Of a stretch of 64,000 nucleotides of DNA, positions 9,221 through 50,847 are shown piece by piece. The notes beneath the pieces were generated by a model that saw only the letters and a program-made list of their open reading frames with translations, was not told the origin of the DNA and ran no database searches. The position numbers and the translations under genes were made by a program. This stretch comes from an uncultured virus (IMG/VR IMGVR_UViG_3300042314_001037). Lineage: Duplodnaviria > Heunggongvirae > Uroviricota > Caudoviricetes. The stretch lies in the IMG/VR virus record IMGVR_UViG_3300042314_001037; one strand, written 5' to 3'. Positions within the stretch are counted from its first letter, which is position 1; each line of letters starts with the position of its first letter.

Positions 9221-9294
9221 TGGTGCTCTAGCCAAGAATTGAACTTGGAATTCAGTCTTACCAAGACTGTGTAATACCATTTTACTACAAGAGC
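9221..9294 (-). tRNA. tRNA-Thr(GGT)
   Basis: Cloverleaf, anticodon arm CAGTC-TTGGTAA-GACTG, encoded CCA. Confidence 0.9.
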
Positions 9295-9295
9295 G

Positions 9296-9370
9296 TGGTC
9301 CGGCCAGCAGGAATCGAACCCACATTCAAGAGGTAGAAGCTCTTTGTATTATCCATTATACTATGGCCGG
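9296..9370 (-). tRNA. tRNA-Arg(TCT)
   Basis: AAGAG-CTTCTAC-CTCTT, GGTTCGATTCC, CCA. Confidence 0.92.
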
Positions 9371-9375
9371 AAATT

Positions 9376-9449
9376 TGGAGCGGGATAGGAGAATCGAACT
9401 CCTGACTAAACCTTGGCAAGGTTTCGTTTGACCATTAAACTAATCCCGC
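9376..9449 (-). tRNA. tRNA-Gly(GCC)
   Basis: GCGGGAT acceptor, loop TTGCCAA, TCCA end. Confidence 0.92.
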
Positions 9450-9450
9450 A

Positions 9451-10023
9451 TTAAACATATTCTATATCTGCTGCCAATATAAAACGATACTGATTGCTTT
9501 GTACAACACCCGGCCTGTGCCACTGATCACTGGGATAGATCAACCATGCGTATTCACTAGGTTTTACAAACAACTTGCCGTCACCTGCTGGCCCGTTAGG
9601 AGCCATTTCTGTACCACAGTAATCGTAATCTTTAACATCATCGGGTATGTGCAGATACAAAACACCACTCAACATTTTGGCAGTGTCATGAGTAGGATGC
9701 CAGTGATGATGCCACAGATTTTCACGATCCTCGGCACTCTCAAGATTGGTCATAAACGACCAAGCCATCATGTTATTAACTTTTACTTCACGTCCTAGGT
9801 ACATGAATACACTGAACAAAAAACTCATACGATACTTTAACCATACAGCTTCGGGTCTAGCAAATATATTTTCTTTAGTTTGATATTTGGGACTATTAGT
9901 AAAGTAATTCCCGTCAGCAATGATTGCTTTTATAATGCCTATGGCTTCTTCATTGTCAGATTGTGTAATTACTGAACTGAAATTAAACTTGCGAAATACT
10001 TCGTTTTGATCTATTACTTTCAT
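9451..10023 (-). CDS. putative 2OG-Fe(II) oxygenase
   Basis: WHHHWH...LSGVLYL...IYPSDQWHRP...RFILAAD. Confidence 0.65.
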   Translation of the reverse strand: MKVIDQNEVFRKFNFSSVITQSDNEEAIGIIKAIIADGNYFTNSPKYQTKENIFARPEAVWLKYRMSFLFSVFMYLGREVKVNNMMAWSFMTNLESAEDRENLWHHHWHPTHDTAKMLSGVLYLHIPDDVKDYDYCGTEMAPNGPAGDGKLFVKPSEYAWLIYPSDQWHRPGVVQSNQYRFILAADIEYV

Positions 10024-10031
10024 TATATCCT

Positions 10032-10105
10032 TGGAGCGGAGTGAGAGAATCGAACTCTCGACCGAAGATTGGAAATCTGCTGTTTTACCATTAAACTAAC
10101 CCCGC
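10032..10105 (-). tRNA. tRNA-Gly(TCC)
   Basis: Loop TTTCCAA, TCCA end. Confidence 0.92.
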
Positions 10106-10122
10106 ATACTATTATTTAACAA

Positions 10123-10311
10123 TCAAGTTTCGTGATCCTCTGGAGGATTGGCCAAAGGTGAAGTTGAAGGTTTTTTCTTAGACCATGATGAATAACTGGC
10201 TCCTTCTTCTCTGCTGCTGACATTTCTTTCGATCTGTTGTATCACACCACCCTTGGCCAGGAACTCTGCCATGGCTGTGGCTGTAGCTGCTTCGTATTCG
10301 TCTTTAGTCAT
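10123..10311 (-). CDS. small hypothetical phage protein
   Basis: ORF with GAG SD; AEFLAKGGVIQQI motif. Confidence 0.55.
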   Translation of the reverse strand: MTKDEYEAATATAMAEFLAKGGVIQQIERNVSSREEGASYSSWSKKKPSTSPLANPPEDHET

Positions 10312-10331
10312 TGTTTTCTCTTTTTAAAAAA

Positions 10332-10408
10332 TGGTCGGAGTACAAGGATTCGAACCTTGGACCCCCTGGTCCCAAACCAGGTGCGCTACCAGACTGCGCC
10401 ACACTCCG
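10332..10408 (-). tRNA. tRNA-Pro(TGG)
   Basis: CGGAGTG acceptor, loop TTTGGGA, CCA. Confidence 0.93.
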
Positions 10409-10557
10409 AAATTAACTTGGTATCATATGAGGAACATATGGTACTGCTCTGGGACCGTGTCTCTGTTGTAATAACATACGTGCTTCCTCTGCCGAATTAG
10501 CACCCACACGATCCTTAAATTCTTTGCCGTCTACTCTAATTGTTGCTTCGTATAATT

Positions 10558-11310
10558 TCATTTGAATCCAAACGGACATTTTGATGCGGGCATTGAAGTT
10601 AATAATGATCTATGTTGCCCTCCCCACATAGATTTTTGAGTAAACTCTTTTGAAATCTTTTCGTACTCGTTAGCATCAACTTCATGATGTTTTAATTCTA
10701 CTTCACGTTCAGTTAACGGGATAAGCTGTACCAACGGATCACCTGCATTAACCGTTAGTGTAGTTCCCTTTTTCACAAAAATATTCACATGTGTATTATG
10801 CTGTGCTTTAAAATCTAATATTCCCGATAACGCATGGTAGTTAGCATGTCTATCTGTATTGTGATAGGTACATTGATTCCAGGCAAATTTAACACCAGTT
10901 TTTTCTTTGATTAACCAAGGACTAGAAATTTTCACATGCTGGTATCCCTTGTACAATTCTTCCCAATACATAAAGGGAGGATGGGGATTGGCATCTAGGC
11001 CGCCCATAGGATCATGTTTAAAAAATAATCCGTCCTTCATCATTTCAATTTTAAAATCTGTCCAACTAGGTAGTATAAATCCAGAGGTAAACAAATTGAC
11101 CATACCAACACATCTCTTGGCTGTTGGTATTGGAATTAATTCCTTGCTTCTAGGATCCTGCAGTGATTTTACATCAACCATAGGTGGCAATTGTTTCCAC
11201 TCTGCGGGAACAAATTTATGAGCATGATCAATTTTGAACAGATTCTGCACAACTGGATTATCTATAAAACAATCTACAATTATCTTTTTTCTTCGAAATA
11301 AAAACATCAT
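10558..11310 (-). CDS. hypothetical protein
   Basis: 250-aa ORF ending CPFGFK; no motif I can assign with confidence. Confidence 0.6.
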   Translation of the reverse strand: MMFLFRRKKIIVDCFIDNPVVQNLFKIDHAHKFVPAEWKQLPPMVDVKSLQDPRSKELIPIPTAKRCVGMVNLFTSGFILPSWTDFKIEMMKDGLFFKHDPMGGLDANPHPPFMYWEELYKGYQHVKISSPWLIKEKTGVKFAWNQCTYHNTDRHANYHALSGILDFKAQHNTHVNIFVKKGTTLTVNAGDPLVQLIPLTEREVELKHHEVDANEYEKISKEFTQKSMWGGQHRSLLTSMPASKCPFGFK

Positions 11311-11320
11311 GTCCTCAAAT

Positions 11321-11396
11321 TGGTTGCGGGAGTCGGAGTCGAACCGACGATCTGAAGCTTATGAGACTTCCGAGATACCACCTTCTCCATCCCGCG
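11321..11396 (-). tRNA. initiator-type tRNA-fMet(CAT)
   Basis: C1xA72 mismatch, A11-U24, loop CTCATAA, ACCA end; atypical anticodon stem. Confidence 0.85.
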
Positions 11397-11401
11397 ATAA
11401 T

Positions 11402-11610
11402 TAGTGCCTAGCTACTCCCACCACAGGAGCCCTAGACTGAGCGGTTACTCTGTCCATAACATTTATTCTTATGGGAAGGTGTTAAACCTCACCTAATGCG
11501 TCTCCGGATTCCCTACACAGGATCGGAAGGCCTTTGCACTACAAACCTAGCACTCTTTATGGTGACTGCCCCACCCCCTTTGTATAACGGGCAAGGGCGC
11601 CCGGGGTCTG
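11402..11610 (-). ncRNA. candidate structured RNA(s) within the tRNA array
   Basis: Terminal stem AGTGCTAG/CTAGGCACT closing several hairpins; upstream GC-rich hairpin ending GTCACCA. Confidence 0.45.
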
Positions 11611-12186
11611 TTAGATCAAGCCTTCAGCTTGCAGTGTTGCTACAACATCATCACTGAGTGGAATTTCAGTTTTGATATTTAACTCAAGAACTTCATCATT
11701 GAGTTTTTGTTTCTGCTTCTTGAGATTTTGGATCTCTGCCTTGGCTTGATCAATTTGATCTCGTCCAACAACACTGGTAGATACCGTGTCGTCACGGCCG
11801 TACAAACTTGCACGGCTTTCTTCTTTGCGGCTGCGGATCTTGTCCAACTTGCCGTTGACCACAGCCAAGTCACTCACTGGATTCAATGTGGCTATTTCAG
11901 TCAACTGTGTGACACGCTTGTCAATGAACGCAGCCTTGGCCAATGACAGGTCAATTCCGCAATTTGCGTTGGCTGTACCAACCAGTCCGCGAATGTTGTA
12001 CAAGGCCAACAACAGCTTTTGTCGGCGACCATCATTTGTGATCAAAAGGTTATTGGCCTTTTGAATCTCATCTTGTGCGTTCTGGAACTCGTTGATCTCA
12101 ATGCTGGTATCAATCTTAATACCCTTGATTGCTTCATTGATCGAATTCTGAACTGCGTTTGCCTTACGTAGGGAAATGTTCATCAC
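11611..12186 (-). CDS. coiled-coil hypothetical protein
   Basis: 191-aa ORF with heptad-rich segments. Confidence 0.7.
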   Translation of the reverse strand: MMNISLRKANAVQNSINEAIKGIKIDTSIEINEFQNAQDEIQKANNLLITNDGRRQKLLLALYNIRGLVGTANANCGIDLSLAKAAFIDKRVTQLTEIATLNPVSDLAVVNGKLDKIRSRKEESRASLYGRDDTVSTSVVGRDQIDQAKAEIQNLKKQKQKLNDEVLELNIKTEIPLSDDVVATLQAEGLI

Positions 12187-12412
12187 GTTGTCCTTTCTTC
12201 TTTGTTTTAACAGTTTTTAAAAAATCAAGTCTAGTATACTTGCCCTGTTCGATTTCGTTTAGAGCAGTAACAATAAATCCATGACTACCTTTATCAACTC
12301 TAGGAGCATGACCGTTTTTCAACTCTCGAGCTCGTTGACTTGCAGCCAATACCATTTCAAATCTATCGCCGTATGCTGCCACTGCGTCTTCTGATGAAAG
12401 TTGTTTGTTCAT
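12164..12412 (-). CDS. rpoZ: RNA polymerase omega subunit homologue
   Basis: DRFEMVLAASQRARELKNG...VTALNEIEQG matches the omega signature. Confidence 0.8.
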   Translation of the reverse strand: MNKQLSSEDAVAAYGDRFEMVLAASQRARELKNGHAPRVDKGSHGFIVTALNEIEQGKYTRLDFLKTVKTKKKGQRDEHFPT

Positions 12413-12429
12413 ATATTCCTTTAGGTTAA

Positions 12430-12690
12430 AAATAACGGGTCAACGAAAGGTCAAGTAATAGACCGGACAATATACAATGAAGAGTTGTAGTCTTCGTTGA
12501 CAATGTGCAAAATACAATACACAGAGGTCCATATATTTCCGATTAACAAATGACATTCTATTAGGGATCGGATCACATAAACACGGCCATTGTTCAGATG
12601 GTTGTAAGTTTGGAGTAAGCATGAAGCTCACACCTTTGTGTCTATTCTCATCTACCCTTCGCTTTACCGGTCATGTATTGCTACACAACA
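12430..12690 (-). ncRNA. long structured 5' leader / candidate ncRNA upstream of rpoZ
   Basis: About 270 nt between a consensus promoter and the rpoZ SD; GACCGG/CCGGTC and GTCAACGAA/TTCGTTGAC pairings. Confidence 0.4.
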
Positions 12691-12695
12691 AAACT

Positions 12696-12724
12696 ATTAT
12701 AGCACTCTTTAGACTAAATGTCAA
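12696..12724 (-). promoter_or_regulatory. sigma70-type promoter
   Basis: TTGACA-17-TATAAT. Confidence 0.75.
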
Positions 12725-13338
12725 GTCTTTTTTGCCACTAATTTCACATCCCAAGCCAAAATTGTTCTGTGGCCCTTGCCTTTCCACGGATACACAGTGT
12801 GTGGAATATAGCTGGGAAATATGATCATCTTCATGGGATTTGGGGTAAACCGCCATTGATCTACAAAAACAAAATGTGCAGGGTTTCTTACCACCGGCAA
12901 TCTAAACTCAATCACAGCATCCGATATGTTGTCTGTGAGATCAAGATCAGGAACATCAATGTAGATGTTGCCGCTGATATGTGCTTCATGATTGTGCATG
13001 GCCTGATAGTCGCCTGCAGTCTGACGTATAGTCCATGCTGAAACCAACATGGGTTGAAATGCTGACAGATCGTTGCGACCGCTTTGTTTGATCTGCGCAT
13101 CCATGTATTCCTGGCACTGCGCTTCTACATAGCGTTTGATATGCCCTGTGTCTAGATTGAATTGATTTGGCAAGAGTTGAATCTGCTGTCCGCCACGTAT
13201 GCTAATAGCAGGATTACCCTCATCATTGAGTTCTGTCTTGGTATGTGCAGTATCTACTAGACTTTTCAAATTGGTGAATACATCCGCCGGCACATCGGCC
13301 ACAGCCATCACAGTTGGATTAAAATATGCAAATTTCAT
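12721..13338 (-). CDS. putative 2OG-Fe(II) oxygenase
   Basis: MHNHEAHISGNIYI...IIFPSYIPHTVYP...RTILAWD. Confidence 0.75.
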   Translation of the reverse strand: MKFAYFNPTVMAVADVPADVFTNLKSLVDTAHTKTELNDEGNPAISIRGGQQIQLLPNQFNLDTGHIKRYVEAQCQEYMDAQIKQSGRNDLSAFQPMLVSAWTIRQTAGDYQAMHNHEAHISGNIYIDVPDLDLTDNISDAVIEFRLPVVRNPAHFVFVDQWRFTPNPMKMIIFPSYIPHTVYPWKGKGHRTILAWDVKLVAKKT

Positions 13339-13352
13339 ATGTACCTAAAAAA

Positions 13353-13426
13353 TGGTGCCCCTTGACAGAATCGAACTGCCGTAACCTGATTACAAAACAG
13401 GTGTAATACCATTATACTAAAGGGGC
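13353..13426 (-). tRNA. tRNA-Thr(TGT)
   Basis: Loop TTTGTAA, CCA. Confidence 0.92.
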
Positions 13427-13443
13427 AATACTTACTTAAAACT

Positions 13444-13518
13444 TGGTGGACCGTCCCGGGATCGAACCGGGGATTGAAGCTTGCAAAGCTACTGTGTTCC
13501 CATCTATACCAACAGCCC
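13444..13518 (-). tRNA. tRNA-Ala(TGC)
   Basis: G3:U70 pair, loop TTTGCAA, CCA. Confidence 0.92.
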
Positions 13519-13524
13519 AATATT

Positions 13525-13674
13525 TTACTTACCTTCGTTGAGTTTATACTCTTGAAGTTTTTCTTTAAATGCTTGTTCGGTTAGTCCGTGCCAACCGATG
13601 CACTTACCAGTAGGCGAACGACCGCAACCACACTTACCAACCTGATCTGCATTTTCTTTAACTCGAACTTGCAT
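13525..13674 (-). CDS. CDGSH-type iron-sulfur small protein
   Basis: CGCGRSPTGKCIGWH resembles the CDGSH C-x-C-x2-S-x3-P-x-C-D-G-x-H motif; start trimmed to MQVRV. Confidence 0.6.
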   Translation of the reverse strand: MQVRVKENADQVGKCGCGRSPTGKCIGWHGLTEQAFKEKLQEYKLNEGK

Positions 13675-13675
13675 G

Positions 13676-13888
13676 TTAGCCTCCACTGGATACTGTTCCG
13701 GATGCATGAGTGGTAAAATTACCACCTCCCTGTTTGCGTGGTTCACGTTTTGGCACCACGGCAGCACATAGTTCAGCATCAATCATAGCACGTTTCCATT
13801 CACCTCGTTTGTGCGGATCTAGAACTCTACTCATTGCTAGACTTGCTTTAGTCAAAGCACTCATTCTATAATTTGGACCTGGTTTCAT
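13676..13888 (-). CDS. hypothetical phage protein
   Basis: ATG with AAGGA SD. Confidence 0.6.
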   Translation of the reverse strand: MKPGPNYRMSALTKASLAMSRVLDPHKRGEWKRAMIDAELCAAVVPKREPRKQGGGNFTTHASGTVSSGG

Positions 13889-13909
13889 TGTATTTCCTTT
13901 ATTAAAATC

Positions 13910-14109
13910 TGGTTGCTCTGCATCCCCCGGCGGTAATTATAGTACAGAAAGATATGACGCTATCATACCCCTCACTCGTACCTTCCACCCGCTTCCCGAC
14001 AGGGACCGTTCTCGCATTGCTAGCGGCCTTTGGGTTTAAAGACTACCACCCGTAGTTGTCACACTACTTCTCATCGTGTGGGTCACACTATCCGAAGACA
14101 CTCGGAACG
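13910..14109 (-). ncRNA. candidate ~200-nt multi-stem RNA with a 3' CCA
   Basis: 5' and 3' ends pair; at least 5 internal hairpins; ends CAGAGCAACCA; lies directly after tRNA-Ser. Confidence 0.55.
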
Positions 14110-14112
14110 TTA

Positions 14113-14200
14113 TGGCGGAGCATGTAGGAATCGAACCTACTCACCCATTACTGAATGACAGATTAGCAATCTGTTGCCTTAACCGGTCGGCCAATGCTCC
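14113..14200 (-). tRNA. tRNA-Ser(GCT)
   Basis: Long variable arm, loop TTGCTAA, GCCA end. Confidence 0.92.
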
Positions 14201-14208
14201 GTGTTGCT

Positions 14209-14284
14209 TGGTGGGTTCTGCCAGGGTCGAACTGACGACATTCTGCGTGTAAGGCAGACGCTCTACCAACTGAGCTAAGAACCC
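14209..14284 (-). tRNA. tRNA-Val(TAC)
   Basis: Loop CTTACAC, CCA. Confidence 0.93.
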
Positions 14285-14291
14285 TAAACTA

Positions 14292-14375
14292 TGGTGCGCA
14301 AGGAGAGACTCGAACTCTCAATCCTTTCGGCACTGGCTTCTAAGACCAGCGTGTATACCATTCCACCACTTGCGC
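14292..14375 (-). tRNA. tRNA-Leu(TAG)
   Basis: Loop CTTAGAA, variable arm, CCA. Confidence 0.93.
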
Positions 14376-14397
14376 AAATTTCTAACTAATAATATAC

Positions 14398-14426
14398 ATT
14401 ATATAGTCTAATCACCTGTGTGTCAA
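14398..14426 (-). promoter_or_regulatory. internal sigma70-type promoter in the tRNA array
   Basis: TTGACA-17-TATAAT. Confidence 0.75.
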
Positions 14427-14456
14427 CAACTTTATGAAAAAACTTATAAAATAATT

Positions 14457-14548
14457 TGGTACCAGCGGAGGGAATCGAACCCTCTCAAGAACGCTAATCT
14501 GGCGCTAAAAGGTTTATAAAACCTCTCTGACTACCAAGTCTCGCTGGC
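14457..14548 (-). tRNA. non-canonical tRNA with TAT (Ile, AUA-reading) anticodon
   Basis: 7-bp acceptor, 1-nt linker, D arm GACT-TGGT-AGTC, AGAGGT-TTTATAA-ACCTTT, long variable arm, normal T arm, ACCA. Confidence 0.75.
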
Positions 14549-14555
14549 ATTTATT

Positions 14556-14639
14556 TGGTATGAGCGGAGGGACTTGAACCCTCAATCCCGAAGGCGGCAG
14601 ATTTTAAGTCTGCTGTGTATACCATTCCACCACGCTCAC
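14556..14639 (-). tRNA. tRNA-Leu(TAA)
   Basis: Loop CTTAAAA, variable arm, CCA. Confidence 0.92.
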
Positions 14640-14645
14640 ATATCT

Positions 14646-14721
14646 TGGTGCCGCCTCTAGGGATCGAACCTAGTTCCTCGGTTCTTCAAACCGGTGCTAT
14701 GACCACATCAGCTAAAGCGGC
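14646..14721 (-). tRNA. tRNA-Phe(GAA)
   Basis: Loop TTGAAGA, CCA. Confidence 0.9.
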
Positions 14722-14723
14722 AT

Positions 14724-14797
14724 TGGGGTGAAGGGGAGAATCGAACTCTCTCTTACTGTTTCACAGACAGCCGTGCAGCCACTACACTACCAACACC
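14724..14797 (-). tRNA. tRNA-His(GTG)
   Basis: G-1:C73, loop CTGTGAA; two U-U mismatches in the acceptor stem. Confidence 0.82.
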
Positions 14798-14960
14798 ATT
14801 AACTTTTTCTAACACATCCTTACGCATAAGGAACTGTCGTTGATTGTCAGGGCGATGAACCAAGAGATACTCAACGCCATCTATATTCTGAGTTTGACGA
14901 GAATCTTCACAGACTACTCGTTCGTTGTTTAAACGATTTTTAAAAGTAATAGGTTTCATT
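14753..14960 (-). CDS. small hypothetical protein (3' end overlaps tRNA-His)
   Basis: MKPITFKNR start with GGAG SD. Confidence 0.5.
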
Positions 14961-15029
14961 TTATATCTCCTTGTTATGGCCAATCCTTGCACTTTGCTTG
15001 GATCTTACGTAATAGAATTTTACTAATTT

Positions 15030-15103
15030 TGGTATCGCTGCCACGAGTTGAACGTGGACTTAGACCTTCGCAGGGTCTTGTGATATCTTTTCACTACAGC
15101 GAT
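15030..15103 (-). tRNA. tRNA-Arg(GCG)
   Basis: AGACC-CTGCGAA-GGTCT, ACCA; D loop lacks the GG. Confidence 0.8.
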
Positions 15104-15114
15104 AAAATAAATAC

Positions 15115-15789
15115 TTGATGTTAGACATCTTTTTAAATCGACGAACACAGCGAGCATTTACTAATGACGCTATACCTCAAGAGCATATTGACTCAATACT
15201 AACAGCTGGTTGTTCAGCCCCTAGTAAGCAACGTGCATATCCTTGGCGTGTTATTGCATTAACTCAAAGCCACAAAGCTCTTGAATTAAAAAATAAACTG
15301 TTCTTAGACAGTTTCATTAACATGCCAATTCGTAAACATTTACTAACAGCCCAATCACCTTTACTGTTAGCATGGATAGGAGTTCCTATCTTAGACAACT
15401 TTGACCTAGGTCTTGTTTCTAATGGTACTACAGTACGTGAACAAGGAATAAATGTATCTTCTAGATCTGCTGATCCTAAAACACAATATACTGTTCGAAC
15501 ACGTTCTGAAAAAGATACAATGATTGCTGCTAGTTTTTCTATGATACAAGCAGAATCTCTAGGATATCGTACTGCCTTTACATCATGCTTTTTCGAAGAC
15601 CAAGCTCACAAGATTTTAGGTCTTGCAGAAAATGAATGGCCCATTGTGTTTCTATCTGTTGGCCAACCCAATGACTCTCGAGTAAGAGAAACGGTAAACA
15701 ACGGACCAACAACAGTTGGGTTTTCTGATCCACGTCCTTTTCCAGAGCCACCTAAGTTAACTCCTGCTGAACTATCTACTATTATCTAG
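15115..15789 (+). CDS. nitroreductase family protein
   Basis: NRRTQRAF...APSKQRAYPWRVI...AESLGYRTAF...FLSVG. Confidence 0.85.
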   Translation: MMLDIFLNRRTQRAFTNDAIPQEHIDSILTAGCSAPSKQRAYPWRVIALTQSHKALELKNKLFLDSFINMPIRKHLLTAQSPLLLAWIGVPILDNFDLGLVSNGTTVREQGINVSSRSADPKTQYTVRTRSEKDTMIAASFSMIQAESLGYRTAFTSCFFEDQAHKILGLAENEWPIVFLSVGQPNDSRVRETVNNGPTTVGFSDPRPFPEPPKLTPAELSTII

Positions 15790-15790
15790 T

Positions 15791-15865
15791 TGGCCGGTCC
15801 TGCAGGAATCGAACCCACACCGCTTGGTTCGAAGCCAAGCATTCTATCCATTGAACTAAGGACCG
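15791..15865 (-). tRNA. tRNA-Arg(TCG)
   Basis: CTTGG-CTTCGAA-CCAAG, GCCA. Confidence 0.92.
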
Positions 15866-15873
15866 TTATTTTT

Positions 15874-15947
15874 TGGCAGAGGGTAAAGGAATCGAACCTT
15901 TAATAGCGGAATCAAAATCCGCGGTTATACCATTTAACTAACCCCCA
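15874..15947 (-). tRNA. tRNA-Gln(TTG)
   Basis: Loop TTTTGAT, GCCA. Confidence 0.9.
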
Positions 15948-15953
15948 ACAACT

Positions 15954-16029
15954 TGGTGGTAATAGTTGGACTCGAACCAACGATAGGCTGCGTATGAAGC
16001 AACTGCATTAGCCACTATGCTATATTACC
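15954..16029 (-). tRNA. tRNA with CAT anticodon (elongator Met; Ile2 not excluded)
   Basis: G1-C72 paired, loop TTCATAC, ACCA. Confidence 0.85.
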
Positions 16030-16115
16030 ATATAAAAACACACTCAAGTCCGCGGCACGGAAGGCACTATACCCGCGATGGTCTATGACCAGGCCTAATG
16101 TGTTTTTATATGGTA
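16026..16115 (-). ncRNA. hairpin-closed spacer element between tRNA-Lys and tRNA-Met
   Basis: 17-bp inverted repeat TACCATATAAAAACACA/TGTGTTTTTATATGGTA around a GC-rich core. Confidence 0.45.
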
Positions 16116-16184
16116 GGGGTGCTCGGGAACGATCCGAGTTTTACTGGTTAAAAGCCAGTTACTTCACCTTAAAGTTTCACCCCC
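16111..16184 (-). tRNA. tRNA-Lys(TTT)
   Basis: Loop CTTTTAA; variant T loop ATCGTTC; CCA. Confidence 0.85.
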
Positions 16185-16235
16185 GTTATCTTATCACTCT
16201 TGTCACTAGTCATGACAGATCTCCTTTTAAAAAAT

Positions 16236-16310
16236 TGGTAGCCTATCTTGGGAACGATCCAAGGACCCCCGCCTTATCAAGACGGTGCTCTACCACTGAG
16301 CTAATAGGCT
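16236..16310 (-). tRNA. tRNA-Ile(GAT)
   Basis: Loop TTGATAA; variant T loop ATCGTTC; CCA. Confidence 0.88.
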
Positions 16311-16316
16311 GTATTA

Positions 16317-16427
16317 GGCGGACGAATCATTATCACTGCCACGCCCAGGTCATTCGGCAGGGGTACGCCACTTGGCGGTTAGGAAAGGTAACCCGTGTGC
16401 ATCTAACACTGCTCAAATGATTCGTCC
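16317..16427 (-). ncRNA. candidate tRNA-like small RNA
   Basis: Perfect 12-bp terminal stem GGACGAATCATT/AATGATTCGTCC followed by GCC; internal hairpins. Confidence 0.5.
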
Positions 16428-16432
16428 ATAGT

Positions 16433-16522
16433 TGGCGGAAGTAGTAGGATTCGAACCCACGGACCCTTTCGAGCCTTCAGTTTTCAAGACTGCTGCCTTA
16501 AGCCATGCTCAGCCATACTTCC
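16433..16522 (-). tRNA. tRNA-Ser(TGA)
   Basis: Loop CTTGAAA, long variable arm, GCCA. Confidence 0.92.
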
Positions 16523-16527
16523 ATGAT

Positions 16528-16608
16528 TGGTACCCCGGGCGGGAGTTGAACCCGCATTTAAATTTCTCTTTTTGAGAGAGACGACTTTGCCAATTTGTCT
16601 ACCGGGGC
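16528..16608 (-). tRNA. tRNA-Leu(CAA)
   Basis: TCTCT-CTCAAAA-AGAGA, short AT-rich variable region, CCA. Confidence 0.85.
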
Positions 16609-16658
16609 AAAAGAAAAACTCCACAGCATCGACTATGTCGAACGAGTGGAGCCATGTT

Positions 16659-16736
16659 TGGAGTGGCGGGTGAGATTTGAACTCACGATTTTACGGATTT
16701 GCAATCCGTTGCAATGGGCCTCTCTGCCACCGCCAC
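16659..16736 (-). tRNA. tRNA-Cys(GCA)
   Basis: Loop TTGCAAA, U73, CCA. Confidence 0.9.
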
Positions 16737-16743
16737 ATAAATT

Positions 16744-16818
16744 TGGAAGACCGTAGGGGAGTCGAACCCCTCTTACCAGGATGAAAACCTAGTGTCCTAA
16801 CCGATAGACGAACGGTCC
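16744..16818 (-). tRNA. tRNA-Glu(TTC)
   Basis: Loop TTTTCAT, CCA. Confidence 0.92.
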
Positions 16819-16826
16819 ATAAAACT

Positions 16827-16902
16827 TGGCGTACCCTCACGGCCTCGAACCGCGAACCTCTGGTTTTGGAGACCAGCGCTCTGCCAATTGAGCTAAGGAT
16901 AC
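16827..16902 (-). tRNA. tRNA-Trp(CCA)
   Basis: Loop CTCCAAA, GCCA. Confidence 0.92.
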
Positions 16903-16907
16903 ATTAT

Positions 16908-16984
16908 TGGCTCCCCGGGGAAGGCTCGAACTTCCGACATCGGCATTAACAGTGCCGCGCAACTACCAACTGTGCTACCGAGGA
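16908..16984 (-). tRNA. tRNA-Asn(GTT)
   Basis: Loop CTGTTAA, GCCA. Confidence 0.92.
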
Positions 16985-16991
16985 ATAAACT

Positions 16992-17066
16992 TGGCGGTCT
17001 GTGGGGGAATCGAACCCCCGTAAGCGGATAGACAATCCGCAGTAATAACCTCTATACGAACAGACC
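16992..17066 (-). tRNA. tRNA-Asp(GTC)
   Basis: Loop TTGTCTA, GCCA. Confidence 0.92.
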
Positions 17067-17074
17067 TAAAATTG

Positions 17075-17269
17075 TTAAGCAACGCCGCGGAACGTGACAC
17101 GGCACCGTTCTTGGCCACCATATTGGGCTTCTGCTATACGCACAGCATCTCCGGATGTCTGGGCATTTACTACAGTTTCAAATTGTCGAAGGCTCTCAGT
17201 TTGAAAAGCACCGCTGGTACCTTCACCTGCATACGAACCCACTTCAACATAAACACGATACGATTGCAT
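17075..17269 (-). CDS. small hypothetical protein with its own promoter
   Basis: MQSYRVYVEV start, AAGGA SD, promoter TTGACT-17-TATACT at 17300-17328. Confidence 0.6.
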   Translation of the reverse strand: MQSYRVYVEVGSYAGEGTSGAFQTESLRQFETVVNAQTSGDAVRIAEAQYGGQERCRVTFRGVA

Positions 17270-17337
17270 TTGATTTCCTTTTAAGTTCACAGTATTAATA
17301 GTATAACACCAATCCAAAAAAAAGTCAACCATTCGTT

Positions 17338-17426
17338 TGGTGGACGAGGTAGGAGTCGAACCTACAATGTTTCTTATGTGGCGGATTTACAGTCCGTTGC
17401 CTTCAACCAATTCAGCGCACTCGTCC
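17338..17426 (-). tRNA. tRNA-Tyr(GTA)
   Basis: Loop CTGTAAA, long variable arm, CCA. Confidence 0.92.
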
Positions 17427-17432
17427 AAAATT

Positions 17433-17640
17433 GTTTACACTCTCCGCTATGCTTTTAGACACCGTTCAAAGGTGAATGAAGAGTGTATATTAAAACGTAC
17501 TCGGCTCGTGGCCTTGTCCCCTAAACATTCTAGTTTTGGAGTACGCTTTAATATAACTAGTATTTTTTTATCCACACAAGGATAAGCCATCCACTAGTCC
17601 GCCCGTTCGCAGCATGTTTTGAGTGCGCTGCCCGGGCCTC
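17433..17640 (-). ncRNA. chain of four stem-loop modules ahead of the first tRNA
   Basis: GCCCG/CGGGC, ACTAGT/ACTAGT, ATATTAAAGCGTACTC/GAGTACGTTTTAATAT and TACACTC/GAGTGTA stems. Confidence 0.4.
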
Positions 17641-17667
17641 GTTCCCGTAATCTATTGCACTTTTGCG

Positions 17668-17829
17668 TTATTCAGCAAGTTTTTGAAACTGCCTTTCTCG
17701 CTCTTCTAGTTGATCTAGCATGTTATTTCTTGCAAACTTTTGCCAGATAAGTTTCCTTGTCTGTTCTGCCGTTAGCACAAAATTCTCGCTATGTTCAACT
17801 TCGTAGTTTTTATCTATCTCTAATTCCAT
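17668..17829 (-). CDS. 53-aa hypothetical protein, first gene after the attenuator
   Basis: MELEIDKNYEVEHSENFVLTAEQTRKLIWQKFARNNMLDQLEERERQFQKLAE*, AAGGA SD; below the ORF-track length cutoff. Confidence 0.55.
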   Translation of the reverse strand: MELEIDKNYEVEHSENFVLTAEQTRKLIWQKFARNNMLDQLEERERQFQKLAE

Positions 17830-17841
17830 TTTTCCTTGCGG

Positions 17842-17877
17842 AAAACAAAAAACCCCAGGGTTTTAATCCTAGGGTCC
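17842..17877 (-). terminator. intrinsic terminator of the putative attenuator
   Basis: GGACCCTAGG-ATTAAAAC-CCTGGGGTTT followed by TTTGTTTT. Confidence 0.8.
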
Positions 17878-17927
17878 TTTGAAGTTTAAGTGTATTTTGA
17901 GTTTACACTAACATCTCCACGGACCCC
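17872..17927 (-). promoter_or_regulatory. antiterminator hairpin overlapping the leader stop codon and the 5' arm of the terminator
   Basis: GGGTCC/GGACCC, TGGAG/CTTCA and AGTGTA/TACACT nested pairings. Confidence 0.7.
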
Positions 17928-18046
17928 GGCTCTAGCTCTGGTGTACGATCATATGATAGACTATTAATCGCTAACCAGCAAGAGGCCATCACGCCTACCT
18001 GCTTAGGTATCGAATTAAAATGACTAAAAGATGATCTGAGTTTCAT
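17903..18046 (-). CDS. 47-aa leader peptide containing all 20 amino acids
   Basis: MKLRSSFSHFNSIPKQVGVMASCWLAINSLSYDRTPELEPGSVEMLV*, AAGGA SD upstream, about 50 nt after a consensus promoter. Confidence 0.7.
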   Translation of the reverse strand: MKLRSSFSHFNSIPKQVGVMASCWLAINSLSYDRTPELEPGSVEMLV

Positions 18047-18103
18047 TTGCTTTCTTTTCCTTTCTTTTCCTTTTATAGACAACACCTTGCTGTCTATGTT
18101 TTA

Positions 18104-18218
18104 ATTATACAGTTATTTAGTCTCTGTGTCAACCTTTATTTGCATTTTAGGCAAAATAAATTTTGACGCCTTCCTAACCAACTGTATGTATTATATTGTC
18201 TTTTTATTTATGTGTCAA
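18104..18218 (-). promoter_or_regulatory. tandem sigma70 promoters heading the tRNA array
   Basis: Two exact TTGACA-17-TATAAT: -35/-10 at 18213-18218/18190-18195 and at 18127-18132/18104-18109. Confidence 0.8.
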
Positions 18219-18256
18219 TAGAAATACGGTCACATTATGTGGCTTTTTTGCCACAT

Positions 18257-18511
18257 TTAATCAAATGTTGATTCGCCGCTGATTAGAATGTGTTTGCCAA
18301 TTTCAAAAAGACCCACGCTGCCGGGCAGGTCCATTGCAGCCACATGTATCTGGCACTCTCCACTATTGTCAATTGAGCAGGCAACGAATTCTTTTATGAC
18401 ACCTTGGTCAATTGACTGCCTGATAAAGTCAACCACCTCCAGCATGGCTTTTTTTTGCTCTTCTTCTTGAATCTGTTCTTTGCGTCTGCTGTTAATGCTT
18501 ACGACTTCCAT
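18257..18511 (-). CDS. hypothetical protein
   Basis: 84-aa ORF directly after clpP. Confidence 0.6.
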   Translation of the reverse strand: MEVVSINSRRKEQIQEEEQKKAMLEVVDFIRQSIDQGVIKEFVACSIDNSGECQIHVAAMDLPGSVGLFEIGKHILISGESTFD

Positions 18512-18521
18512 ATTTGACCTT

Positions 18522-19109
18522 TTATATTAAATGATCGGCAATGCCGAGTTCGATGGCTTCTTGTGCTGTTAGATAAACATCACTGGCTGGCAACAGTTTT
18601 GTTTTAATTCTTGATGGGGCTAATCCGGTTGCGTTCTTAAGTATGTCAACCATCTTCTTGTTTAACATCTCATTCTCTTTCATTTCTGCTTTTAGGTCGT
18701 GAAACTTGGCGTCAGTTCCGCCGGAGAATTGATGACACATAATACCTGTGTTGGCTGCAATGTGTCTTTCTCCATGATCGCCACTGGTAAAAATCAAAAA
18801 TGCAGCACTCATAACACTGCCTATACCCACAGTGCGAACAATGTGTTTGCTGTTTCGCATGATGTCAATGAGAGCAAATGCCTGGTAAAGATCTCCGCCC
18901 GATGAATTAACATACAGAGTAAGAACTTTTTCTTTAGCTTCTAGATTTTCGTAGACCAACCATTTGATGCATTCGTTGACGTTTTCTTCGGTAATTTCGC
19001 CGGTTAGAAAATGAACCGAATTTTCCAGTAATTTTATGCCAATACGATCGCTGGCGTTAAATTCGTCTATTTTTTTCACTGCTGCCCCTTGCGTACTATT
19101 ACTTATCAT
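18522..19109 (-). CDS. clpP: ClpP-like protease subunit
   Basis: LYVNSSGGD, GSVMSAA (catalytic Ser), IMCHQ (His), DVYLTAQEAIELGIADH. Confidence 0.85.
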   Translation of the reverse strand: MISNSTQGAAVKKIDEFNASDRIGIKLLENSVHFLTGEITEENVNECIKWLVYENLEAKEKVLTLYVNSSGGDLYQAFALIDIMRNSKHIVRTVGIGSVMSAAFLIFTSGDHGERHIAANTGIMCHQFSGGTDAKFHDLKAEMKENEMLNKKMVDILKNATGLAPSRIKTKLLPASDVYLTAQEAIELGIADHLI

Positions 19110-19126
19110 ATCTAGTAATTATACTA

Positions 19127-19507
19127 TCAGTTAATAGAGAATACACCTACAGCCCAGCCAATAATAACGATATAGGTCAAATAATGGAGAGCTTGATCTA
19201 GCCCAAACCAAACCCAAAATGTGCGATCTGCAGGAGTCAGCCCTTGATTCAACTGTTGTTTTGCCCAATCGATATGATAGTGTGCTACCATGTCAAATAG
19301 TGCGGCAAAAACTGCCATTGTGCCTAAAAATGGCAACAAAATAACCCAAGTCCAAACTCCGTGCATAGTGGCGTGATGTACCCCACCCTCTGCACCGTAG
19401 ATGCCCTTTTGTTCTAGCATATAGGGAAATTGCAGTAGAAAATCACATATAAAATGTTTAATGCCAAAGAGAGCCAAAAGCAGTATAATCAGCTGTATTT
19501 CAGTCAT
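19127..19507 (-). CDS. DUF3307-like membrane protein
   Basis: KHFICDFLLQ...HYHIDWAK...GLDQALH. Confidence 0.7.
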   Translation of the reverse strand: MTEIQLIILLLALFGIKHFICDFLLQFPYMLEQKGIYGAEGGVHHATMHGVWTWVILLPFLGTMAVFAALFDMVAHYHIDWAKQQLNQGLTPADRTFWVWFGLDQALHYLTYIVIIGWAVGVFSIN

Positions 19508-22500
19508 ACAACTTTGCCCAATCCTAACCAAATAAGTTGATCTAATTCTGTTTGATAATCTTGTCCTAGTCTACGTTTTTCATAGATCGCTCGTAGTACA
19601 TCTGTCCCATCACCGTAGTTCATAACACCTGAGCCACGTGACTCCAATTCTTCAATTAGATCATCGGTGTCAAAGTCACTTAAATCAACATCTACTTCGA
19701 CTTCTTTATACATAGTTTTATACATTATACAAAATCCTTAAACATCTGCTTACGGCCATCTTCGCCAATATGCAGATCAAACAGATCTTTTACTGTGGTC
19801 AGCATGGCGCAGGCCAACATGAGCTGATCATGTCTGTCGTCACACATCATGATCTGACGATCAATGGGTTCCATTAGTTCTATCATTCGTTCTTTTATAG
19901 GATCATTCATTTTTTTCCTTGGTAAGTTCGCACATCAATTGAAAGTGATCGTAGGCTTTGCGTACACTTTCGTGTTGCATCAGTTTGTCTGCTTCCTCTT
20001 GCATGGCCTTAACACCAGCTTCCGCATGATCTCTGTAACTACCATAGGTCAACGGACATAATTCATCTCCAAACTCTTTGGCTAGCTTCTCCCAGGCTTT
20101 CTTTTGTCCGGGAGTAATAGGAGTTCTCTGTGGCTTCATTTCGCTGGCTTTGGATATGGCTCGACAGATGGCATCTTCAGCCACACGGCCTGCCGCAATC
20201 ATGGCAGCATAGTTAGGATCAATATTAAAACAGCGAGACTGCCCTCCGGGGTAAGACATAACCAAGTGAGTACCTTTTGTAAAGCTATCCAACAGGTCAT
20301 TATCATACTCTGCCACAGGGACATAACGTCTTCCAAGTTTTTCATAATAGATCTTTTTAGTCATACTGTATTAGACGAAATCGTATGAGCGTTCAAAAAT
20401 AGGGCCATCACAAATATACAACTCGCCATCAATGCCACGCATTAGGTAGTCACCGGGCTTGCCCTGTTTGTAATTGCCTTCCAGTGTGTTAACACGAAAT
20501 TCCTCATCAATTTTTTTAGCATGAACAACAATAGGACGCTTAACACAGGCACCCATGTCCGCTACTTGTTCAAATGTATCAAATGTTTTCATAATTAATG
20601 TACCGCCTCTTTTGCGTCTACTTCACACTCAACGACCCAATTGTTAAATTCTGTAAACTTGTTTACATTGACTCCGAGTCCTACAGCTTCATTTACAAAA
20701 TGTTGTAGGAGTGAATTGTAGAGTTCATCTGGCATTGTGTTTTTATCAAATTTAATTTTCATATGTTTTCCAAGTGTTTGTTTCGTTGTCCCAATGTCGT
20801 CGATCGTAAAAATTAAAATGAATGTTATAGCCTAGCAGGCCCAAAGATAATTCAAATCCTGCATGGTCTTGTCTAACAGTAAAGTTAAATTCAAACTCAA
20901 CTAGACCGCCTGATAGATACTGTTCTATCTCCCAGCATTTATTTTCAGTAAGCTGTCCGTTGATGTTGCTAAGATAGTAAAATCTTGATCGACGCCACGG
21001 ATTATCTATACTAAAATTTATGTGTATCATTCTGGTAGTGGTCTAAATCTAGATAAAAAACTTTCTCGATAACAACTGTATTCTCTATTTTTGCTTTCTG
21101 GCAAATGATCATTGATGTAGTGAATCCAAGTATGATTTTCTACTTCCACAATCTGTATTACCCTAAAAATCTTACCGTTGCCGCCATCCCATTTACTGCC
21201 TTCTTTGATTATTGTCATGTTTTATCCTTTCCAATTTTCTTTTACATCCTCTGGAACTTGTACAGTCATATGTAGCATGAATCTGTAGGCTTCCCATGCT
21301 GTTTTGGCTGCATGGTTATTGGCCATGTTAGTAGGGAATAGGTCGGCCCAAATTGCGCCTTCGGGAATACGAAAAGCACGAATATCTTGTAGACGAGGTT
21401 GAAACACCTTGCCTTCGTTGTACAATCGCATGCCTACTTCCATACACTGCTCTTCGTCTAGTCCTTCTAGATAATCATGACGATACATATAATCTTGAAT
21501 GCAGAATTTAACGGTTTCTATATCGCGAAGTGCAGTACCCGAAATGATCCAAGCAACATCGTCATAACTCACTTCACCATTGACAATGTCTCGAATACAT
21601 CGTCCAAAACTGAAACCTATTTTCATTTTTGTGTTCTCTGTAGTTCTTGCAGAAGTTCGTTCATCATTTTAAATTGCGATTGTATCTGTTTTTTAAGTTC
21701 TTCGGGACTCTGAGTGGGCAAACACTCTGCTGAGTACTGTGCTGATTTTGACATCATCGCACGTTGTTGCAGGCAAGCAGTGAGATCGTTGTAAGACACC
21801 AACGGTGTAATAGCACCCAGATTAGTAATTAGTACCAATTGATATAACATGCCAACTCCTAGTAATTAACGATATGTATATTATAACACCATACTGCTCA
21901 CAAGTCAACCCCAACGCAACATAAAGAGTACAGCATCTTTGGAATCTTCAAAAAGAAATTCTGCACCGTTTCGTTCAAACTGGCCCTTACAATTATCCGA
22001 TAACCAATTGGTGATATCTATGGCATGATTGTTGTCCGTTAGTCGACTGATTTTAAATCGAGTCCAACCAATGCCTTCAAACAGACCCCAAAGTACCTCT
22101 CGATCTATTTCTCTAGCCATTTCACTAGCGGCCTTATTGGCAATTTCTTCTTCTAGTGTCATGCCCATTTCATTGCAAACATAGTTGCATCCTGTTCATT
22201 TTGAAAATACCAAGCACGACCGGTTGGGTGTGCAAGATCACGGAATTTGTTTTGACAATTCTCTAAACACCATGTGAGTTTTTCTGCAAAGTCATCATCT
22301 CGTAACACTATAGCATGATAGGTACCTAATAGTGTCATTAGCTTATCGTCTACTTTGAGATGTTCTTCTGCCCGTTGAGCCCTCATAATAGTTGGAGTTG
22401 GATCCGGATCTATCATTTACCGTGTCTCAACAACCATTCTGTTAGCCTGGCACCCTGTAATTTGGCACGGACTTGATACTTGTAACCACGATCAAAGTGA

Positions 22501-50279: not shown

Positions 50280-50640
50280 GCTATTTTGGATGACAAGGTA
50301 TAACTACCTCGGACCGCTGTTTTTTAGGCAGCTAGAGCAACTTTGCTTTTGCCGGAAACAGTGTTTCCAGTGAAGCTCATTGCGCTGAAGTCGAATGTAT
50401 CTGCGTTTGCATTTACGTTTTTTGTATTTTACGTGACCCCACGTGTTGATCTTTATCCTATCTCACCCTGTCGAAACCATGGCAGGCCCATCATAAAAGG
50501 ACTAGAGCAAATACTACGATAACAACAATAAAGCCAACTAGAGCACTATATTCGTTATCCATACTAATCTCCTTTATGGTGGACCTGGCGGGAGTCGAAC
50601 CCGCGTCCAGAATGCCTTACTTTAAGACTTCTACAACAAT
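50280..50640 (-). ncRNA. ssrA: two-piece (circularly permuted) tmRNA
   Basis: The acceptor piece (GACGCGGGTTCGACTCCCGCCAGGTCCACCA, ends 50577) precedes the coding piece (starts GGGCCTG at 50489); G3:U70; tag ANADTFDFSAMSFTGNTVSGKSKVALAA* at 50410-50324. Confidence 0.9.
50491..50562 (-). CDS. 23-aa hydrophobic peptide inside the tmRNA intervening segment
   Basis: AAGGAG SD, then MDNEYSALVGFIVVIVVFALVLL*. Confidence 0.5.
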   Translation of the reverse strand: MDNEYSALVGFIVVIVVFALVLL

Positions 50641-50643
50641 TTT

Positions 50644-50847
50644 TTAGGCAGCTTGAATATTACTAGCCTGCTCGCCTTTTTGACCCTGAGTCACTTCAAA
50701 CCTTACACTTTGTCCTTCTTGTAGGCTCTTGAAGCCACTCGAATTAATCTGTGAAAAGTGAGCAAATAAGTCTGCGCCACCATCGTCCGGAGTAATGAAT
50801 CCAAAACCTTTGGCGTCGTTAAACCATTTTACTTTTCCTGTTACCAT
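50644..50847 (-). CDS. cspA: cold shock protein
   Basis: [29 protein letters not shown]. Confidence 0.95.

Follow-up and report, generated by a model that had tools for sequence, protein, structure and literature searches.

A putative ribosome-mediated attenuator with a leader ORF encoding all 20 amino acids at the head of a giant phage tRNA array

The stretch analyzed here, called the window throughout, comprises 64,000 nucleotides (64 kb) of DNA from an uncultured giant freshwater phage (IMG/VR record IMGVR_UViG_3300042314_001037, 353 kb). On its minus strand, ahead of a large tRNA array, the window carries a compact leader element of ~250 nt, with consensus promoters, a short open reading frame (ORF) that encodes every amino acid, and an intrinsic terminator whose 5' arm can be captured by a hairpin formed at the end of the ORF. 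Judging from the homologous leaders of related phages, this hairpin (hairpin A) is real, it covaries and overlaps the terminator, and the element always heads a tRNA array. We conclude that it is probably a ribosome-mediated attenuator placed at the head of a phage tRNA operon, in which smooth translation of the leader would terminate transcription and a stall at any codon would allow read-through.

Organization of the leader element

The features of the element and the genes that follow it are:

18190..18218, minus strand: promoter P1, TTGACA-17-TATAAT, 12/12 consensus positions; its hexamers are kept in the alignment of 18 versions
18104..18132, minus strand: promoter P2, TTGACA-17-TATAAT, 12/12; predicted transcription start near 18097
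18075..18097, minus strand: 5'-terminal hairpin, ATAGACA / 9-nt loop / TGTCTAT (7 bp), at the predicted 5' end of the P2 transcript
18047..18074, minus strand: purine-rich translation initiation region; the nearest AGGA ends 11 nt before the ATG
17903..18046, minus strand: leader ORF, 47 codons plus TAA, with all 20 amino acids by codon 37
17947..18036, minus strand: ORF-body hairpin H0, from folding of the leader ORF
17868..17929, minus strand: predicted antiterminator hairpin A; its 5' arm is codons 40-47 plus the stop, and its 3' arm ends in GGACCC(TAGG)
17842..17877, minus strand: intrinsic terminator, stem ACCCTAGG/CCTGGGGT plus TTTTTTGTTTT tail; the 5' arm shares nucleotides with the 3' arm of hairpin A
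17668..17829, minus strand: first downstream ORF, 53 aa, no family; it starts 13 nt past the U-tract and has AAGGA as its Shine-Dalgarno (SD) sequence
9221..17426, minus strand: tRNA array, 29 genes for all 20 amino acids, with ORFs and internal promoters interspersed

Most of these features had been described in a sequence-only reading of the region. The two perfect sigma70 promoters, the 5' hairpin (18097-18075) and the 29 downstream tRNAs for all 20 amino acids (17426-9221) were found as described, and the codons of the ORF and its complete coverage by codon 37 were exactly as quoted, including both codon classes of Leu, Ser, Arg and Ile. The hairpin GGGTCC/GGACCC with the stop codon at its apex was likewise recovered: GGGTCC (17926-17921) pairs with GGACCC (17877-17872), and the stop codon (17905-17903) lies at the apical loop. 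The U-tailed terminator, whose stem of 8-10 pairs and U-tract occupy 17875-17842, does share the 3' arm of this hairpin, the nucleotides common to that arm and to the start of the terminator stem being ACCC(C). The claimed SD of the leader stood only in part, since the purine-rich stretch was present but the SD itself was reduced to a weak and distant AGGA.

The first 37 codons of the leader comprised 31 distinct codons, with no runs of one amino acid, and the leader covered 29 of 32 decoding groups, only ACY, CGR and GTY being absent. Relatives carried the 5' hairpin with variant stems, and this structure may stabilise the RNA. The 47-aa product matched no Pfam or PHROG family, with only chance-level hits for the members of the alignment, and an Rfam scan of positions 17500-18400 gave no match near the gathering score (best 23.9 bits vs a threshold of 54) and no T-box. 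AlphaFold2, run on the peptide with 19 aligned sequences, returned a single low-confidence helix (pLDDT 59.4, pTM 0.24). A search of the phage's own genome for further leaders or terminator motifs recovered this copy only.

Homologous leaders in related phages

No useful match was obtained by blastn of the 701-nt region or tblastn of the peptide against 50,697 GenBank phage records, and homologous leaders were gathered by three routes. The first, which did not use the terminator, followed the neighbouring ClpP-like gene to 80 IMG/VR loci, in 28 of which the leader was recognisable (18 distinct versions). The second was a scan for the terminator pattern, with GGACCC fixed, which added at least 120 further stretches. 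The pooled loci contained at least 143 terminators; a family member detected by a hidden Markov model (HMM) preceded 131 of them, and another 10 were preceded by ORFs in the same position that were too diverged for the HMM. Two artefacts were excluded before counting, one a start mis-assignment of 2 aa and the other a 36-aa ORF truncated at the end of its contig. The main set consisted of 107 distinct peptides, 35-51 aa in length, whose pairwise identity had a median of 0.40. The third route, an independent profile search of 5.8 billion proteins, returned 388 metagenome clusters, of which 120 were listed; all 388 were unnamed or "hypothetical", and none had a Pfam domain.

Among the 18 distinct versions the ATG, the frame and the position of the stop were conserved, and all indels were in frame. 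Third-position changes were in excess (2631 vs 1771 and 1871), and the comparison indicates that the leader ORF is under coding constraint. A promoter site scoring at least 10/12 was present within 260 nt upstream in 105/107 leaders, and scored 12/12 in 71. In 17/107 leaders the ATG lay 4-15 nt after the -10 hexamer, and these appear to be leaderless or nearly so. A diverged sub-family (loci L157, L185, L215 and L220) encoded only 35-36 aa yet 19-20 amino acid types; in these the ATG stood a few bases past the -10 hexamer, so that they are likely leaderless. Two 35-aa leaders reached all 20 amino acids by codon 30.

Maintenance of complete amino acid coverage

All 20 amino acids were held by 95 of the 107 distinct leaders (0.888), whereas 10 held 19 and two held 18. 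The set obtained through the ClpP-like gene gave 17/18 complete leaders, and the independent protein search gave 97/120 among the matches listed, where 22 held 19 types, 19 of these without Cys. Single codons were found at shifting positions: Cys occurred exactly once in 91/107 leaders and was spread over 15 alignment columns, His was missing from no leader and used 10 columns, Tyr occupied 13, and Phe also shifted position between leaders.

Two null models and two controls were compared with these counts. Column permutation (2000 runs) left all 20 amino acids in 0.184 +/- 0.034 of the leaders (maximum 0.299). A tree-aware per-column simulation, in which column composition, rate and phylogeny were retained and the columns were made independent, gave 0.186 +/- 0.071 (maximum 0.523), and 0/500 runs reached the observed share. 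The ORF directly after the terminator in the same phages (median 53 aa) was complete in 2/71 cases and usually held 16-17 types, and 1.6% of the 47-aa segments of this genome's long ORFs were complete. The observed share exceeded the nulls and controls, showing that completeness is actively maintained, though not absolutely. The sequence-only reading had proposed examining related phages for full coverage that persists while the peptide drifts, and comparing it with the coverage of other ORFs; both checks favoured that reading.

Taken by itself, this genome makes the coverage mildly unusual, not extraordinary, as its 1290 ATG-ORFs with 37 aa or more include 6 that reached all 20 amino acids within 37 codons; it is the persistence in homologues that places it far beyond chance. 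A second all-20 ORF (39 aa, ~23528-23644, minus strand) was rejected as chance, since it lies in a coding context and has no promoter, hairpin or terminator.

The excess extended to the level of decoding. Leaders covered on average 29.05 of the 32 decoding groups, vs 26.81 after a synonymous redraw from this genome's codon usage, and 103/107 lay above their own expectation. Both codon classes of the split families were present in more leaders than expected, the counts taking leaders as independent and ignoring kinship:

Ile (ATY and ATA): 93/107 leaders, expected 55.8
Arg: 93/107 leaders, expected 68.1
Leu: 93/107 leaders, expected 70.8
Ser: 106/107 leaders, expected 101.3

Alternative pairing of hairpin A and the terminator

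In the pre-terminator RNA, that is, the transcript before the 3' arm of the terminator is made, GGACCC was paired upstream with the 3' end of the ORF in 107/107 versions. The median energy was -28 kcal/mol for hairpin A and -14.6 kcal/mol for the terminator hairpin alone. The stop codon abutted the apical loop of hairpin A in 101/107, and the 5' arm started a median of 21 nt before the stop.

Because GGACCC was fixed by the search pattern, a separate scan for terminators with other flanks was performed. It yielded 19 hits, all with GAACCC, for which the partner was GGGUUC in 13, from several peptide lineages; of the remainder, three had a partial partner and three were unrelated terminators. 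The pair GGGTTC/GAACCC is a compensatory G-C to A-U change, indicating that the base of the antiterminator covaries. The upper stem was kept by compensating changes: 46 distinct apical helices were found, and the native minimum free energy (MFE) was -9.3 kcal/mol vs -6.4 kcal/mol for chimeras built with arms from different leaders, a test that ignores kinship. Persistence of the alternative pairing in relatives, which the sequence-only reading had also proposed examining, was thereby borne out. RNAalifold on a MAFFT alignment of 106 sequences recovered the terminator only, with no covariation, the alignment being poor in the variable hairpin and GGACCC being pattern-fixed; it was replaced by per-sequence folding, the chimera tests and the variant-arm scan.

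Constraint folding gave the following distribution of structures:

Free RNA, from the ATG to the end: antiterminator 89/107, terminator 18/107
Ribosome site at the stop blocked: antiterminator 23/107, terminator 84/107
Ribosome at codon 15: antiterminator 72/107, terminator 35/107

Folding with the stop site blocked, a check that the sequence-only reading had put forward, favoured the terminator in most leaders and left a minority in the antiterminator form. The codon that completes coverage precedes the 5' arm of hairpin A by a median of 12 nt (quartiles 10-12). Toeprints place the leading edge of a ribosome ~12 nt ahead of its A site, so that the sensor region appears to be packed up to the limit of ribosome reach.

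Association of the leader with tRNA arrays

Wherever 1.5 kb or more of sequence followed the leader (85/85 loci), 4-23 tRNAs lay on the same strand, the first of them a median of 433 nt (221-1006) past the terminator, and no tRNA was present upstream of the leader in 123/131 loci. Of the ClpP loci without a leader, 41/52 had no same-strand tRNA in the fetched flanks, indicating that the leader travels with the array and not with the ClpP-like gene.

Twelve leaders missing one or two amino acids were compared with the tRNAs detected by ARAGORN in up to 20 kb behind them. The array also had no tRNA for the missing amino acid in 5/13 cases (Phe three times, Lys and Val), vs 28/227 for those that the leader does encode (one-sided Fisher p = 0.021, odds ratio 4.4), in phages that are kin to each other and with ARAGORN calls that may be incomplete and extend over up to 20 kb of flank. 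This concordance is suggestive only of a leader content that mirrors the supply of the array. Arrays of relatives (L221-L232) differed in the amino acids served, with 0 to 8 of the 20 missing within 20 kb.

In the window, promoters on the minus strand were also found by consensus scoring inside or at the end of the array, and similar ones recur across this phage region:

17328-17300, minus strand: internal promoter, 10/12
14426-14398, minus strand: internal sigma-70 promoter, 12/12
12724-12696, minus strand: internal sigma-70 promoter, 12/12
9219-9191, minus strand: sigma-70 promoter, 12/12

The first three had been named in the sequence-only reading, and the fourth is additional to its list. 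No terminator was seen directly ahead of the promoters at 14426-14398 and 12724-12696 when the sequence at both was inspected; 18 tRNAs would therefore lie within reach of read-through at the leader ahead of the first strong internal promoter, and transcription could go further.

Public RNA data held related sequences. In 24 freshwater, lake and river RNA runs 8-19% of the sampled words were present, and Logan contigs from four runs contained pieces of the leader, terminator, promoter region and tRNA-Tyr of relatives. Two of these contigs cross the terminator, as contigs that carry no 3'-end, level or strand information and may derive from DNA carry-over.

Proposed mechanism

Host RNA polymerase would start at the two consensus promoters and transcribe the leader, with a ribosome following. 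The last 7-8 codons, the stop and the next 30 nt would fold as hairpin A, sequestering GGACCC. An undelayed ribosome reaching the 5' arm and the stop would unwind hairpin A, the terminator would form, and transcription would end at 17842. A ribosome held at any of codons 2-37, possibly by a tRNA that is uncharged, depleted or cut, or one that never loads, would leave hairpin A closed; no terminator would then form, and the polymerase would enter the 53-aa ORF and the tRNA genes. The element has the traits of ribosome-mediated attenuators, namely a predicted leader ORF, a terminator before the genes that would be controlled, an exclusive antiterminator and a geometry fitted to ribosome position. 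The interpretation offered in the sequence-only reading gained from the coverage and alternative-pairing results and from the link to arrays in relatives. The read-through response to stalling and the direction of the logic would follow from this arrangement, and the trigger may be starvation, the action of anticodon nucleases or the decay of host tRNAs in the infected cell. Since each amino acid has about one codon in the leader, severe loss of a tRNA should elicit the strongest response.

More tentatively, and with less than even confidence, we suggest that the leader is a codon-level "pangram" that gauges the whole tRNA pool, any missing, uncharged or nuclease-cut tRNA opening the array, and that leader content co-evolves with the supply of the array. 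Viral tRNAs can replace host tRNAs that decay in infection or are cut by defence nucleases, which has drawn growing attention to their genes, and to our knowledge the regulation by phages of their own tRNA genes is essentially undescribed. If the pangram reading is correct, no attenuator of tRNA genes was known before this one, and the phage would carry its own sensor of defences that target tRNAs. The element would provide supply-on-demand control of a complete tRNA set, and it would exemplify a new type of selection on coding sequence, for the presence of a set of residues and not for their order. Being compact and built from host sigma-70 promoters and an intrinsic terminator, it might serve as a general reporter of translational stress.

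Several observations weigh against the attenuator interpretation. The SD of the window's leader is weak. Coverage is incomplete in part of the family, with one or two amino acids missing in 12/107 leaders and in 23/120 among the matches listed, and a homologous ORF at locus L067 has only 17 amino acid types. Most amino acids are represented by one codon each, without a run, so that sensitivity to mild starvation may be low. At three loci (L050, L052 and L054) tRNAs follow the ClpP-like gene without such a leader ORF, and in the window the internal consensus promoters could express the distal 11 tRNAs independently of the leader. The model with a ribosome at the stop retains the antiterminator in 23/107 leaders. 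For a stall at the last sensor codon with 12 nt covered, the antiterminator was predicted in 22/95 full-length MFE structures and 53/95 pre-terminator structures, vs 58/95 and 84/95, respectively, with 8 nt covered; in these models the limit set by a 12-nt footprint is the weak point of the attenuator. A peptide motif, W...(Y/N)DRTPE, is conserved across much of the family, and a long hairpin formed by the ORF body, H0, is likewise conserved and lies outside the attenuator scheme.

The MFE of H0 had a mean z-score of -2.87 relative to codon-order shuffles and fell below -2 in 81/107 leaders; its helix spanned at least 70% of the ORF body in 100/107, and the native MFE was -29.7 kcal/mol vs -25.2 kcal/mol for chimeras. 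A conserved ...TATCATATGATCG... block covaries with the N-terminal codons. H0 could keep ribosome and polymerase in step as a pause hairpin, insulate hairpin A, or form part of a functional stable RNA.

Alternative explanations

The last of these options leads to the alternative that survives best, although we consider it unlikely: a translated leader that mainly yields a stable structured RNA, acting in trans or marking a site of processing, for instance by RNase III. Structure runs along nearly the whole RNA (H0, hairpin A and the 5'-terminal hairpin, at the z-scores and energies given above), and small RNAs derived from attenuators are known, for instance rnTrpL. However, no Rfam family was matched, the covarying pairing is exactly the one that removes the 5' arm of the terminator, the all-20 content is a property of the code and not of the RNA, and control in cis fits an element found strictly at the head of tRNA arrays. 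A role in trans would supplement attenuation, not replace it.

Slightly less probable still is an ordinary small phage protein gene with strong early promoters and a normal terminator, whose peptide, with its conserved W, DR and P, acts in trans and whose stop-codon hairpin is a 3' end structure. This would account for the residues M1, G18, W24, D33 and R34, invariant in 19 sequences, for the excess of third-position changes, for the 388 metagenome protein clusters, and for a next ORF that begins immediately past the U-tract, an arrangement shared by many phage operons whose terminators leak. It leaves unexplained the retention of all 20 amino acids by relocation (0/500 tree-aware runs), and very diverged ORFs in the same position, some of 35 aa, still hold 19-20 types. 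Close pairs of leaders showed 2535 non-synonymous vs 1475 synonymous codon differences, and no Pfam or PHROG family was matched by the peptide. In the sensor region most of the motif and invariant residues are the sole representatives of an amino acid or codon class, so that selection for coverage alone would suffice to fix them. The peptide itself may nonetheless have a role.

A sensor of general translation rate or ribosome availability, in which completeness is incidental to a long unbiased ORF, is improbable. It would share the logic of the actinobacterial whiB7 leader, which also answers ribosome-targeting drugs, and the free RNA defaults to the antiterminator (89/107), so that any failure of translation would open the switch. 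An unbiased ORF of this length, however, holds all 20 amino acids in ~2% of cases, not 89%, and both the shifts of solitary Cys, His, Tyr and Phe codons between positions and the decoding-group excess show selection on completeness itself. That a short all-20 ORF stands beside a terminator by chance, as the 6/1290 ORFs of this genome (one of them, at ~23644, without regulatory context) might suggest, is refuted by persistence in 95/107 diverged homologues vs nulls of ~0.19.

Neighbouring genes and other translation functions

Upstream of the element and on the same strand lie the ClpP-like protease gene (18522-19109, minus strand; PHROG head maturation / ATP-dependent protease, E = 3e-27) and a gene for a membrane protein of PHROG 2470 (19127-19531, minus strand). 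Cultured relatives were distant, with identities of at most 40% for the ClpP-like and 60% for the RNR protein. The window also encodes a phage transfer-messenger RNA (tmRNA; 50324-50671, minus strand), which ARAGORN classified as permuted, with a tag peptide, and which matched the Rfam families tmRNA_permuted (120.5 bits, threshold 47) and beta_tmRNA (102 bits, threshold 84). The latter match hints at a betaproteobacterial host, and the tmRNA is a second translation-support function next to the tRNA array.

Comparison with known attenuators

The enterobacterial attenuators trpL, hisL, leuL, thrL, ilvL, pheL and pheM of pheST consist of a translated leader and exclusive hairpins between which the ribosome decides. 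Their leaders contain stretches of repeated codons for one to three amino acids, the genes under control encode the corresponding biosynthetic enzymes or synthetases, and a 1:2 "protector" pairing makes an untranslated leader terminate. The phage element resembles them in its leader ORF, in its exclusive antiterminator and terminator, and in its dependence on host RNA polymerase and coupled translation. In contrast, its leader has each amino acid about once, without runs, it would control tRNAs, and its untranslated RNA defaults to read-through according to the folding (89/107).

T-box riboswitches bind one specific uncharged tRNA directly, with no leader peptide. Like them, the phage element would sense charged-tRNA supply through a choice between terminator and antiterminator, whereas it has a leader peptide and no T-box match in Rfam.

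Antibiotic-sensing leaders offer a further parallel, the tet(M) leader of Tn916 being an attenuator of this kind. Ribosome-mediated attenuators that sense antibiotics are also reported to precede bmrCD in B. subtilis, with bmrB as the leader (PMC4191407), and to act in MexXY regulation (PMC13041342). In all of them, as in the phage element, a general slowing of leader translation would switch the terminator off. These leaders are short, however, depend on particular stalling contexts and control efflux or resistance genes, and selection for complete amino acid content is not reported for them.

The literature search found no all-amino-acid leader and no control of phage tRNA genes by attenuation, subscription journals being largely outside the search; within the searched literature, no attenuator is described whose leader retains every amino acid and almost every decoding class. 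The claim in the sequence-only reading that no description of this design is known therefore holds for the all-amino-acid leader, but not for multi-amino-acid sensing, for which the upstream ORF (uORF) of whiB7 (wblC) in mycobacteria and other Actinobacteria was already a tested case. In that system, efficient translation leads to the terminator and stalling to the antiterminator, and the amino acid content of the uORF sets the starvations that are sensed, with an additional response to ribosome-targeting drugs (PMC10274678). The uORF of M. smegmatis has every amino acid except Cys, and removal of its single Trp reduces Trp sensing; whiB7 uORFs contain 25-40% alanine and often do without several amino acids, as in M. 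tuberculosis (PMC10274678). The phage element is like whiB7 in having a longish uORF of mixed composition ahead of an intrinsic terminator, with the same logic. In whiB7, a cellular system, the regulated product is a transcription factor of drug resistance and alanine metabolism, whereas the phage element is viral, would control tRNAs and shows no sequence relationship to it. The phage leader is not Ala-rich and is followed by the 53-aa ORF and tRNAs, with no WhiB gene. Completeness is conserved in the phage leaders and not in whiB7 uORFs, and the former have a mean of 2.49 Ala per ~47-aa leader.

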